A DNA stretch of 24,000 nt from an uncultured Alcaligenaceae bacterium (lineage in GTDB: Bacteria; Planctomycetota; Planctomycetia; Gemmatales; Gemmataceae), in contig CAYVRB010000019.1 of assembly GCA_964453375.1 (NCBI GenBank), positions 536 through 24,535 on the forward strand. The letters run 5' to 3'. The notes beneath the pieces are model-generated. The model was not told where the DNA came from. It searched no databases and saw only the letters and a program-made list of their open reading frames with translations. Below are positions 5,860-8,491 of the stretch, in pieces. The first letter of the stretch is position 1; each line of letters opens with the position of its first letter. The position numbers were made by a program, and so were the translations under genes.

Positions 5860-6417
5860 TTACAGGCTCGCGGCGATCGGTTCCAGGATTTCCCGGAGGG
5901 CGTGGCGGGCGCGGTGCAGGCGCGTCTTGACGACGGACTCGGACGTGCCGAGTTTCGCCGCCGTCTCCGAGGTGTCCAACCCTTGCAGGTCGCGCAATTC
6001 GAGGATCGTGCGAAACGCCGACGGTAATCGTTCGAGGCTTTCGCGAACGCGGATCGCGGTCTCGCCCCGTTCGAGCGGTTCGGGTTCACACGGCGCGCTC
6101 CGGTCGCATCCCGCGTCGAGCGGCACGGTCCGGCGGCGGCGGTCGCTGCGCAGTTTCATCAGGCAGGCGTTCACGGCGATACGGTGCAGCCAGGTGCCGA
6201 GTCGGGCGGTCGCGTGGAACGTGCCGATCGCGCGGAAGGCCGCGAGGAACGTATCCTGCGCCGCGTCGGCGGCGCGGTCGGTATCGCCCAGATATTTGCG
6301 GGCGACGGCCATCACGGCCGGGACGTGCGCGCGGAAGAATTCGTCCTGGGCGGCGAGTTCGCCGGCGCGGAGCCGGGCGAGCAGTTCGACTTCCGAATCG
6401 AGTTCGAGGGCACACAT
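5860..6417 (-). CDS. ECF-type RNA polymerase sigma factor (sigma-70 family regions 2 and 4)
   Basis: Region 2 reads FFRAHVPAVMAVARKYLGDTDRAADAAQDTFLAAFRAIGTF...LGTWLHRIAVNACL. Region 4 reads ELRDLQGLDTSETAAKLGTSESVVKTRLHRARHALRE. The track starts at TTG 6459; ATG 6417 is preferred because the promoter-like element overlaps 6459. Confidence 0.85.
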   Translation of the reverse strand: MCALELDSEVELLARLRAGELAAQDEFFRAHVPAVMAVARKYLGDTDRAADAAQDTFLAAFRAIGTFHATARLGTWLHRIAVNACLMKLRSDRRRRTVPLDAGCDRSAPCEPEPLERGETAIRVRESLERLPSAFRTILELRDLQGLDTSETAAKLGTSESVVKTRLHRARHALREILEPIAASL

Positions 6418-6460
6418 GGTCGTCGGTTCCGGTGGGGTGAGGCGGATACTTCCCACCAAA

Positions 6461-6476
6461 GCGAGACCCGTGCCGG
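6461..6476 (-). promoter_or_regulatory. Candidate sigma-54 promoter upstream of the ECF sigma gene
   Basis: The minus strand 6476->6461 reads CGGCACGGGTCTCGCT, with correct GG-N10-GC spacing, GGCACG at -24 and TCGCT at -12 (consensus TGGCACG-N4-TTGCW, two deviations). It lies about 45 nt upstream of ATG 6417. Confidence 0.4.
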
Positions 6477-6573
6477 AGACGGCGATTTTCGCTCGATTCG
6501 ATGAATACCCTTAAAAAATAGGGGAATAGAGCGATGCACTCTGGAATCGGTTGCGAGGGAAGGCCACCGTCCC

Positions 6574-6608
6574 CCACGATATTTCGTGGCCGCTACGAGG
6601 GTTCGTGG
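6574..6608. promoter_or_regulatory. Candidate enhancer (UAS) sites: palindrome CCACGA-TATT-TCGTGG plus a third TTCGTGG half-site
   Basis: The palindrome lies at 6574..6589, and TTCGTGG recurs at 6602..6608. They sit about 100-130 nt upstream (minus-strand sense) of the -24 element. An AT-rich tract (6501..6530) unusual for this sequence lies between them. Confidence 0.3.
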
Positions 6609-8491
6609 GCGGTGCGGGCGATGCCGAGCTTCTTCATGTGGCTGCGGAGCGTGTTCGGGTGGAGGTCCAGGATGCGGGCGGCGCCGTGCGGACCTTCGAC
6701 GACACCGCCGGTGCGGCGGAGCACGTCGGCGATGTGCTCGCGCTCGATGGCGACGAGGCTCTGCGCGGTCGGCTCCGCGCGCGGCGGGGCGGGCAGGCCG
6801 AGCTGCTCGGGGTCGATGTCGAGCGTCGGGCCGTCCGCGAGGATGATCGCGCGTTCGAGAACGTTCTCGAGTTCGCGGATGTTGCCCGGCCACGGGTAGG
6901 CGGACAGCAGGTCGAGCGTCTCGCGGCCGACCGTGTCGATGCGCTTGCCGATGCGGGTGGCGAACTTCTGGACGAAAAACGTCGCGAGCAGCGGCACGTC
7001 GTCCGCCCGCTCGCGCAGCGGCGGCAACTGAACGGGGAAGACGTTCAGCCGGTAGAAGAGGTCTTCGCGGAACGTCTTCTCCTTCGCCATCCGGGCGAGG
7101 TCGCGGTTCGTGGCCGCGATGATGCGCACGTCCACGGCGATCGGCCGCTCGCCGCCGACGCGCTCGAACTCGCGCTCCTGCAACACGCGCAGGAGTTTCG
7201 CCTGCACGTCCAGCGGTAATTCGCCGATCTCGTCGAGGAAGAGCGTGCCGCCGTCGGCGAGTTCGAAGCGGCCGAGCCGGCGCTGCAGCGCGCCGGTGAA
7301 TGCGCCCTTCTCGTGGCCAAACAGTTCGCTCTCGACGAGGTTCGTCGGCAGCGCGGCGCAGTTCAGCTTGATGAGCGGCTTCGCCTTCCGCGCGCTCGCC
7401 GAGTGGATCGCGCGGGCGATCAGTTCCTTGCCGGTGCCGGTCTCGCCCTCGATCAACACCGTCGAATCGGTGGCGGCGACGCGCGAGACGCGCTGCAGCA
7501 CCGCGAGCAGCTTCGGGCTGCGGCCGACGATTTCCTCGAAGTTGTGGACCGACTTGATCTCGTCCTGGAAGTAATGGTTCTGGGCGCTGAGCTTCGCGCG
7601 GTCACGCTCCATCAAGACGCGCTCGGTGATGTCGAGGAACATCGTGCGCGTGAAGGTGCCGCCGGGGTCGGGGTTGGACCACCACTGGATCCAGATCGGC
7701 CGGGCGTCGTCCTTGCGGCGGAGTTCGAGCACGACGCCGGCGGTGTCGGTGCCGCGGCCGACCGATTCGAAGGCTTCCCGCGCGCGGCGTTGCGCGTCCG
7801 GCGTGTCGGGCACGAGCGAGAGGCCGCGGAAGCCGATCGCCTCCTCCGGCCGCACGCCGAGGATGCGCAGCGCCGCCCGGTTCGCCCGCAGGAAGCGCGA
7901 TTGCAGGTCTTCGTGGACGTAGGCGATCGGCGCCTCGTCGAAGAGATCGCGGAAACGCGCCTCGGCCCGCAGGCGGTCCAGCTCCGCGGCGGCGCGCGCG
8001 GCGAAGATCTGGAAGGTATGCAGGTGCCGCGGCACCGCCGGCATCGGGAGCGCGTCGAAGATCGCCAGGTGGCCGAGCACGTCGCCGGTCGCGTCCTTCA
8101 GCGCCACGCCGAGGTAGCTCTCGACGCCGGCGTCCTTCGGGAACTTCCGTGCCACGCCGAACGGATGGTGGCAGAGGTTCCCCTTCAGCACGTCCTCGCA
8201 CGGCGTGCCGGGCAAATCCCACTCGGCGTCGGGCACGAAGCGGTCGCCCTGCCAGAACGCCAGCGTCCGCACCCGCGCCCGATGGCCGGCGAACTCCGCG
8301 ACGAACGCGTTCGGCACGCCGGTGGCCTGGCTCAGGCAGCGCACCAGGTTCCGGAAGAACTCGACGCCCGTGTGCCCGGCCGTGCCCTCGACGATGGCGC
8401 GCAGCACCGCCCCGTCGTCGGAGTCCACATTCATTCGGGCTTCCGCCACGGGAACCTCGCCGACACGTAACCCAACGAACGCCTCCGGCAT
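6593..8491 (-). CDS. sigma-54-dependent transcriptional activator (bEBP): GAF + PAS sensor, AAA+ sigma-54 interaction domain, Fis-type HTH
   Basis: Walker A is GETGTGKELIARAIH, and ESELFGHEKGAFTGA contains the GAFTGA loop. Walker B is GGTLFLDEIGE. The C-terminal HTH is GAARILDLHPNTLRSHMKKLGI. The N-terminus has GAF-like and PAS-like (FDEAPIAYVHEDLQSRFLRANRAALRILG) regions. An alternative start is ATG 8434. Confidence 0.9.
   Translation of the reverse strand: MPEAFVGLRVGEVPVAEARMNVDSDDGAVLRAIVEGTAGHTGVEFFRNLVRCLSQATGVPNAFVAEFAGHRARVRTLAFWQGDRFVPDAEWDLPGTPCEDVLKGNLCHHPFGVARKFPKDAGVESYLGVALKDATGDVLGHLAIFDALPMPAVPRHLHTFQIFAARAAAELDRLRAEARFRDLFDEAPIAYVHEDLQSRFLRANRAALRILGVRPEEAIGFRGLSLVPDTPDAQRRAREAFESVGRGTDTAGVVLELRRKDDARPIWIQWWSNPDPGGTFTRTMFLDITERVLMERDRAKLSAQNHYFQDEIKSVHNFEEIVGRSPKLLAVLQRVSRVAATDSTVLIEGETGTGKELIARAIHSASARKAKPLIKLNCAALPTNLVESELFGHEKGAFTGALQRRLGRFELADGGTLFLDEIGELPLDVQAKLLRVLQEREFERVGGERPIAVDVRIIAATNRDLARMAKEKTFREDLFYRLNVFPVQLPPLRERADDVPLLATFFVQKFATRIGKRIDTVGRETLDLLSAYPWPGNIRELENVLERAIILADGPTLDIDPEQLGLPAPPRAEPTAQSLVAIEREHIADVLRRTGGVVEGPHGAARILDLHPNTLRSHMKKLGIARTAHEPS

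Follow-up and report, generated by a model that had tools for sequence, protein, structure and literature searches.

Introduction

HrpR and HrpS are two sensor-less paralogs that act together. In Pseudomonas syringae and Erwinia they work through sigma-54 to drive hrpL (PMC8999054; PMC5263251), and HrpL (ECF32) is the only extracytoplasmic function (ECF) sigma factor given in one review as driven by sigma-54 together with a bacterial enhancer-binding protein (bEBP) (PMC8999054). Neither sigma-54 nor STAS comes up in the main text of the ECF reclassification (PMC7826278), and we found no description in the literature of a cassette made up of bEBP, STAS and ECF genes. Here we examine such a locus, reduced by one gene, in a 24,000-nt stretch of contig CAYVRB010000019.1 from a planctomycete of the Gemmataceae (hereafter the window), in which a bEBP gene is followed by an ECF sigma factor gene with a sigma-54 type promoter motif between them. 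Comparison with related loci indicates that the bEBP very probably turns on the ECF gene through this conserved promoter, and the redox-type operons on either flank appear to be targets that the ECF factor then activates. For this three-tier cascade taken as a whole, we estimate a probability of about 0.72.

The window locus and the HrpL cascade have in common an enhancer-binding protein, a sigma-54 promoter, an ECF gene without an anti-sigma gene and a dedicated regulon, which in the window is a predicted one. They differ in that the window encodes a single bEBP with GAF-like and PAS sensors in place of the HrpR/HrpS pair, in that the predicted regulon consists of redox/thiol-type enzymes and not of type III secretion genes (with hrp boxes), in that the ancestral cassette of the window locus has a STAS protein while HrpL has none, and in that the host is a planctomycete.

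BtrS of Bordetella, an ECF factor with a kinase/phosphatase partner switch (BtrU/V/W) that includes a STAS-domain protein, resembles the ancestral cassette in the association of an ECF factor with a STAS-domain protein, but it relies on the kinase/phosphatase switch and has no sigma-54 promoter, and the window has no STAS gene. A further comparison is offered by ECF factors paired with zinc-binding anti-sigma (ZAS; zf-HC2) proteins, such as those of the SigR-RsrA thiol-stress type. The closest same-family relatives of the window ECF factor are coupled to a 76–94 aa HxxxCxxC protein, and the neighbors of these sister ECF genes carry the same GTAACC...CATCCA motif that we describe below. The window differs from such pairs because no anti-sigma gene lies 3′ of its ECF gene, and control would have moved to sigma-54 transcription. 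The locus also compares with the bEBP-sigma-54-STAS-ECF cassette that we found in several phyla. There, too, a sensor bEBP gene is followed by predicted sites for its own product, by a -24/-12 promoter candidate and by an ECF gene without ZAS, and the bEBP and ECF genes are orthologous by descent to those of the window. The STAS gene, otherwise the most constant cargo, is absent in the window, where the promoter stands directly before the ECF gene.

Results

Organization of the bEBP-ECF locus

The two genes and the elements between them are listed in the order in which they are transcribed.

6593..8491, minus strand: bEBP gene, 632 aa, with GAF-like sensor, PAS, AAA+ domain with GAFTGA, and Fis-type helix-turn-helix (Pfam)
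6593..6608, minus strand: candidate enhancer site 1, CCACGAACCCTCGTAG, overlapping the bEBP stop codon TAG (6593..6595); a paired site is present in relatives
6574..6589, minus strand: candidate enhancer site 2, perfect palindrome CCACGAAATATCGTGG, 19 nt from site 1 and approximately 108 nt 5′ of the -24 GG
6480..6540: AT-rich tract between enhancer and promoter candidates, 40% G+C (genome 66%)
6460..6475, minus strand: sigma-54 type -24/-12 promoter candidate CGGCACGGGTCTCGCT (motif and conservation), start predicted near 6449
5860..6417, minus strand: ECF sigma factor gene, 185 aa, without STAS or anti-sigma gene (Pfam, tree and downstream open reading frame survey)

The bEBP matched PAS_4, Sigma54_activat (PF00158, 5.8e-75), AAA_lid_14 and HTH_8 in Pfam, and reading of its translation showed 'HEKGAFTGA', 'GETGTGKE' and 'LFLDEIGE' (GAFTGA, Walker A and Walker B), from which all catalytic motifs are judged to be present. 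Its orthologs occur in many phyla at 53–92% identity (53–68% between phyla). The ECF protein contains regions 2 and 4 (Sigma70_r2, r4_2 and Sigma70_ECF in Pfam). Its gene begins with an ATG at 6417 and stops at 5860..5862. A TTG further upstream, at 6459, precedes the predicted transcription start, and the ortholog in the related locus L032 likewise begins MCA; we therefore take ATG 6417 as the start, which gives a bEBP-ECF spacer of 175 nt (6418..6592). NCBIfam returned an equivalog for neither protein. Its best model for the ECF factor was SigM-like (136 bits, below the cut-off of 190), with no HrpL model among the top 25, and in our tree the nearest relatives were ZAS-linked planctomycetal ECF factors.

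The initial annotation had described a GAF-PAS activator gene followed after 175 nt by an ECF gene, an exact GG-N10-GC motif in the spacer, and, in place of an anti-sigma gene, a repeat element and then an unrelated operon. The open reading frames (ORFs), the Pfam matches and the start codon at 6417 bore out the gene order and the distance, and the motif was found as described (CGGCACGGGTCTCGCT). The downstream ORF survey agreed that no anti-sigma gene follows the ECF gene: this survey, which took in the region 3′ of the gene, yielded repeat-derived ORFs only. The repeat element is also present, followed by a short-chain dehydrogenase/reductase (SDR) gene, but the word "unrelated" did not hold, as the operon that starts there is probably a target of the ECF factor, judging by a promoter candidate at 5863 and by synteny with L032 and L036. 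As for the domain label, PAS was recovered by Pfam while GAF was not, and the first sensor domain is GAF-like in its predicted fold only.

A conserved sigma-54 type promoter motif precedes the ECF gene

The motif CGGCACGGGTCTCGCT has its GG at 6474/6473 and its GC at 6462/6461, places the predicted start (~6449) 32 nt 5′ of the ECF ATG, and departs twice from the consensus, with C for T at -26 and -14. The genome (6.18 Mb, 66% G+C, 93% complete) has an intact rpoN, a 543-aa open frame on contig C108 with a Sigma54_DBD match of 201.5 bits. The comparison set was made up of ECF homologs from 100 genomes of the same family and 80 loci found via the bEBP. A recurring order emerged in these relatives: the bEBP gene, a -24/-12 motif 85–250 nt past its stop codon, and then the ECF operon. 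An intergenic motif scoring at least 9 of 12 was present in 48 of 53 cassette loci, compared with 10% of 1060 size-matched random windows; raising the threshold to 10 gave 72% and 3%. The 53 loci are related and so are not independent counts; they span Planctomycetota, Acidobacteriota, Nitrospirota, Binatia/'delta' metagenome-assembled genomes (MAGs) and Gammaproteobacteria.

Among the six closest relatives (window, L032, L003, L004, L005 and L036), the GG and GC were invariant in all, while four bases of the spacer differed in each (GGTC, GGCC, GCAA, CCGC, GGGC and GCTC). A GG-N10-GC element thus appears to be under selection at a fixed place upstream of the ECF gene. The form CGGCAY-N5-TMGCW is the usual one among Planctomycetota loci.

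Candidate activator sites were found at enhancer distance. All Gemmataceae relatives carry two palindromes of the CCACGA-N4-TCGTGG type just past the bEBP stop codon, their centers about 20 nt apart, and in the Planctomycetota loci the pair lies approximately 100–140 nt 5′ of the promoter; in the window the two sites occupy 6574..6608. Within each 9-kb Planctomycetota locus, CACG-N6-CGTG is nearly confined to this position. The palindrome that occupies the same place changes with lineage, to CCGCGA-N4-TCGCGG in Binatia and 'delta' loci and to CCCAA-N6-TTGGG in Nitrospira. Where the bEBP and ECF genes are divergent, the palindromes sit between the bEBP and STAS-ECF genes, and in two such loci (L037 and L058) they were seen either before the bEBP gene or between it and the cassette, which indicates that the position of the sites is tied to the target promoter rather than to where the bEBP gene ends. 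One of six divergent loci, L037, also has the -24/-12 motif there (9 of 12), and its L010 duplicate shows the same motif. In 6/6 STAS-less relatives, in which the intergenic DNA is otherwise unalignable, the palindromes, AT-rich tract and promoter motif were all retained at conserved spacing. The AT-rich tract is a possible bend or IHF/HU site, and two HU/IHF-family genes are present in the genome. No known RNA families from Rfam were found in the bEBP-ECF spacer.

Elsewhere in the window, we noted two further sigma-54-like sites, TGGCACATGAGTTGCG at 1994-2009 (minus strand), with TGGCAC-N5-TTGC intact, and TGGCAAGTCGATTGCT at 16155-16170 (plus strand), with one mismatch. We also considered, and rejected, another sigma-54 promoter upstream of the DinB operon that flanks the bEBP gene: the best score there was 9 of 12, within coding DNA, at a site that is not conserved.

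The locus is a derivative of a STAS-containing cassette

At most of the related loci, the promoter and the ECF gene are separated by an 85–94 aa ORF whose stop codon overlaps the ECF start. It gave weak STAS_2 and STAS matches, under the Pfam cut-offs. In Binatia/'delta' loci (L073:5531-6478, L081:5546-6463 and about 12 more), STAS and ECF are fused into one open frame of 306–329 aa with both sets of domains, an arrangement suggestive of direct action of the STAS protein on the ECF factor. In several gammaproteobacterial loci the STAS gene is present but no ECF gene was detected.

The window, L032, L003, L004 and L005 have no STAS gene. In a tree rooted at its midpoint, from which L027, L036, L037 and ten near-duplicate Binatia rows were left out, their ECF factors formed one clade (support 100/99) nested among the STAS-linked ECF factors of Planctomycetota, with L006 and L052 as nearest neighbors. 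This nesting points to a single loss of STAS in the clade of the window. No STAS homolog or remnant was found anywhere in the 93%-complete genome, and the 32-nt leader holds no ORF. Also missing from the STAS-less clade is a linker motif, LLPxFDxxGHH, present in most relatives, STAS- and ZAS-associated ones among them; the ECF linker of the clade is 12–15 residues shorter. By these sequence relationships, the locus is a STAS-less derivative of a bEBP-STAS-ECF cassette that spans several phyla.

Sister-clade ECF genes with no bEBP within 1.5 kb were followed in 17/17 cases by an ORF of 76–94 aa with HxxxCxxC, which usually overlaps the ECF stop codon by 4 nt; two of these ORFs, taken as representatives, matched zf-HC2. 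Downstream of the bEBP-linked ECF genes there is no such ORF in any case.

In L033, L041, L045, L063, L067 and L071-L103 (Proteobacteria and Binatia), the cassette adjoins genes upstream of the bEBP that look DUF692-like, DUF2063-like and in some cases MsrP-like, as judged by eye from their motifs.

Predicted ECF-type promoters flank the locus

Alignment of the regions upstream of DinB showed GTAACC-N16-CATCG(A/T)A in 6/7 loci, and the generalized motif GTAACC-N15-16-CATCNA was found before three sets of genes in the window.

8467..8495, plus strand: ECF-type promoter candidate, GTAACC-N16-CATCGTA, 46 nt 5′ of the DinB start; kept in L032, L036, L112, L113 and L114
8541..11376, plus strand: predicted target operon, encoding DinB-like, TANGO2/NRDE-like and VTT/DedA-domain (529 aa) proteins (Pfam, synteny)
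11373..11400, plus strand: ECF-type promoter candidate, GTAACC-N16-CATCCA, 51 nt 5′ of the peroxiredoxin start; also in L032
11452..12033, plus strand: predicted target, AhpC/TSA peroxiredoxin with a signal-peptide-like N-terminus (Pfam, synteny)
5836..5863, minus strand: ECF-type promoter candidate, GTAACC-N15-CATCGAA, toward the SDR/Ferric_reduct::Rieske operon; an equivalent lies directly before SDR in L032 and L036
2568..5414, minus strand: predicted target operon, encoding SDR, small membrane ORFs, a Ferric_reduct::Rieske fusion and a 238-aa ORF (Pfam, synteny with L032 and L036)

At least two genes of the DinB/TANGO2/VTT set are divergent from the bEBP gene in 6/6 other Gemmataceae loci compared (the VTT match is absent in L114 and the TANGO2 match in L115), and the SDR/Ferric_reduct::Rieske set follows the ECF gene in three loci. 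With the strict pattern, the genome has three matches: the window sites at 8467 (plus) and 5863 (minus) and one on contig C83. With CATCCA allowed there are six, three of which lie in the window locus, correctly oriented and within 5.6 kb. Across the compared loci, most of them with the cassette, the motif occurred 20 times at N15-17 versus 2–5 times at other spacings, and the genes behind it in relatives encode DinB, DoxX-like, SDR, peroxiredoxin, MsrP-like, Met-rich (GDKM)n lipoprotein and ZAS proteins.

The -35 boxes at 5860-5863 and 11373-11376 contain the TAA stop codon of the upstream gene (in the former, that of the ECF gene), and the CAT of the -10 box at 8467..8495 is complementary to the bEBP start codon (8489..8491). 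On contig C83, at ~11650-11756 (minus strand), the match (strict GTAACC-N15-CATCGAA) is followed after 40 nt by a DFP/CoaB-like gene (PF04127, 1.8e-22), which may be an unlinked member of the regulon. In L056, L060, L062, L089, L016 and L050, Met-rich lipoprotein-like genes with M-(G/S)-(S/D)-D-K repeats and no Pfam match stand behind GTAACC...CATCCA, near the cassette or near sister ECF genes. The composite repeat between the ECF and SDR genes of the window contains a match to the Acido-Lenti-1 RNA of Rfam (RF01687; 5456-5513, minus strand) over the full model length, at 30.7 bits versus a gathering threshold of 37 (E = 1e-4); L032 has no such insert.

The sensor region of the bEBP

The N-terminal sensor region of this single activator comprises 310 residues, in which Pfam showed PAS alone, with no GAF match even at E-values up to 10. 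A profile search of PDB sequences gave a weak GAF match to the GAF-GGDEF protein 4zmu (E = 0.13). An AlphaFold2 model of residues 1–300 (58 homologs, pLDDT 86.6) has two alpha/beta sensor domains with a long helix between them, and includes a domain built of a helix, a six-strand sheet and a long helix. Foldseek matched it to GAF-PAS and PAS-PAS sensors (the DhaR N-terminus, bacteriophytochromes and FixL) with template modeling (TM) scores of only ~0.34, which are low because the domain orientations differ. On this model, the GAF label would hold at the level of the fold only.

A cysteine in this region, Cys98 in a GTPCE motif, was invariant in all 58 bEBP sequences. In view of the regulon predicted for the ECF factor and of its ZAS ancestry, the invariant cysteine may point to an oxidant or thiol signal.

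Points against the cascade and alternative explanations

Several observations weigh against a cascade of three tiers. With respect to the second tier, sigma-54-like sites are common: the window has eight with at most two mismatches versus 3.0 expected, and YGGCAYG-N4-TYGCW occurs in the genome 18 times at the correct spacing versus 15–38 times at wrong spacings, with no enrichment. Eighteen matches per 12.35 Mb amount to a chance of ~3e-4 for one match on the given strand of a 175-nt spacer, for a pattern that was chosen post hoc. With counts at chance level, CGGCACGGGTCTCGCT alone is no evidence, and the case is made by the comparison with relatives. The single palindrome is likewise at chance in the genome (5 observed versus 6.6 expected), so that it is the conserved position alone that carries weight. 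Nor was a terminator found between the bEBP and ECF genes, and some readthrough into the ECF gene may occur. With respect to the third tier, the GTAACC motif was derived post hoc from the DinB upstream regions, its wrong spacings gave 4–7 matches in the genome, which puts the total at the correct spacing at background, and many other ECF factors of the genome could use it. Self-activation of the sister ECF genes through this motif was considered and discarded, since it was seen at 1–2 of 17 loci only and most of the upstream regions are sigma-70-like. The 5863 site lies 415 nt from the SDR start, with the repeat element and a weak terminator-like hairpin between; in L032 and L036 the SDR gene begins ~20–50 nt past the ECF stop codon, from which the 445-nt repeat-filled gap of the window would be an insertion into the leader. 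Lastly, the bEBP-ECF locus was not found in a 96%-complete genome of the same genus (G082), where a DNA search with window positions 5800-8600 returned only paralogous AAA+ domains at ~69% identity. The L032 locus, from a MAG, carries it at 92% (bEBP) and 81% (ECF) protein identity.

We next considered what else could explain the locus. The ECF factor may still be held post-translationally by an unlinked partner, a ZAS protein or another, with sigma-54 setting only its amount and the factor being no true orphan, an explanation that is compatible with a real sigma-54 promoter. The small ZAS anti-sigma factors of the sister ECF genes are in keeping with it, as are two bEBP-linked loci, L060 and L089, where a zf-HC2 gene preceded by an ECF-type motif is retained in the interval from the bEBP gene to STAS-ECF, and a genome-wide ZAS search that gave weak ZAS-like matches only, on contigs C45, C66 and C180 (best E = 6e-4). 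However, these matches are at the level expected of anti-sigma factors belonging to other ECF factors, the survey of the region downstream of the gene (the wider locus was not searched) found nothing ZAS-like, and the clade has lost the LLPxFDxxGHH motif that its STAS- and ZAS-associated relatives retain. We consider such a partner unlikely. Control by transcription rather than by sequestration, as proposed in the initial annotation, is supported by the intact rpoN, the motif in 48/53 loci, the palindromes, and the missing ZAS gene, unlike the arrangement in the sister ECF genes.

The second alternative concerns the targets: the GTAACC-N15-16-CATC sites could belong to another ECF factor or regulator, with the regulon of this one located elsewhere. 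The genome encodes dozens of ECF candidates, and both the post hoc definition of the motif and genome counts equal to those of the wrong-spacing controls leave room for this. Given a total at background, the signal lies in the clustering of three correctly oriented sites, out of six in the genome, within 5.6 kb around the ECF gene. Moreover, many genomes have the motif alongside the cassette and alongside sister ECF-ZAS pairs, and in L020 it even stands before a sister ECF gene. Assignment to another regulator seems improbable to us, and the window ECF factor is the predicted user of these promoters.

That the -24/-12 motif is a decaying, non-working remnant, with ECF expression coming instead from bEBP readthrough or an overlooked sigma-70 promoter, is very improbable. 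The missing terminator, the two consensus departures, the background frequency of the pattern and the earlier loss of STAS from the cassette would fit it, but CGGCAY-N5-TMGCW is the ordinary Planctomycetota form and not a decayed one, the palindromes, AT-rich tract, promoter and spacing persist in all six STAS-less relatives amid unalignable DNA, and no sigma-70-like site was found in the spacer.

Discussion

The three-tier cascade that we favor would operate as follows. In the first tier, a cytoplasmic sensor-activator would bind the two palindromes that start at its own stop codon. In the second, on receipt of its signal, the bEBP would remodel sigma-54 RNA polymerase at 6460..6475, and transcription from ~6449 would yield the ECF sigma factor, which has neither an anti-sigma nor a STAS partner linked to it and should be active as soon as it is produced. 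In the third, the ECF factor would direct RNA polymerase to the GTAACC-N15-16-CATC(G/C)(A/T) promoters at 8467, 11373 and 5863, and the DinB/TANGO2/DedA operon, the peroxiredoxin gene and the SDR/Ferric_reduct-Rieske operon would be switched on. As the predicted promoter at 8467 overlaps the bEBP start codon, it could also give feedback. The gene content, the motifs and their conservation, and the lack of a ZAS gene after the ECF gene are direct readings of the DNA; binding by the bEBP, sigma-54 dependence, the assignment of the ECF promoters and the oxidant/thiol signal are what we infer from them.

The analogy to HrpR/HrpS and HrpL drawn in the initial annotation stands in its core, on comparative evidence, although the parts differ. 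As to its suggestion of a distinct signaling route, in the form of a GAF/PAS-sensing version in this lineage, the arrangement is not peculiar to the lineage: the cassette spans several phyla and the window holds a STAS-less derivative of it. On a broader and more tentative view, to which we give somewhat less than even odds, the cassette would represent a widespread and so far undescribed mode of control of an oxidative or thiol-stress ECF factor, in which the redox-sensitive ZAS of one ECF lineage was replaced by a Cys-bearing GAF-PAS activator together with STAS (fused to the ECF factor in some phyla), and the Gemmataceae clade would be its minimal end-point, a purely transcriptional relay that lost both STAS and the linker motif and has its regulon on both flanks.

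The STAS-less Gemmataceae version is the simplest form of this design: a single sensor acts at one promoter for one sigma factor, with three predicted target promoters nearby, all within 10 kb. A system this compact could be used to test what the conserved sensor detects, and it could be put to use as a two-stage switch that is portable and orthogonal. For the DinB/TANGO2/DedA cluster, which is poorly understood, the locus also provides a likely regulator. Beside HrpL, the review's only ECF factor made under sigma-54 (PMC8999054), the window and its relatives suggest that soil and water bacteria of several phyla commonly use the design, and that control by sigma-54 and a bEBP may have replaced the usual anti-sigma factor repeatedly.

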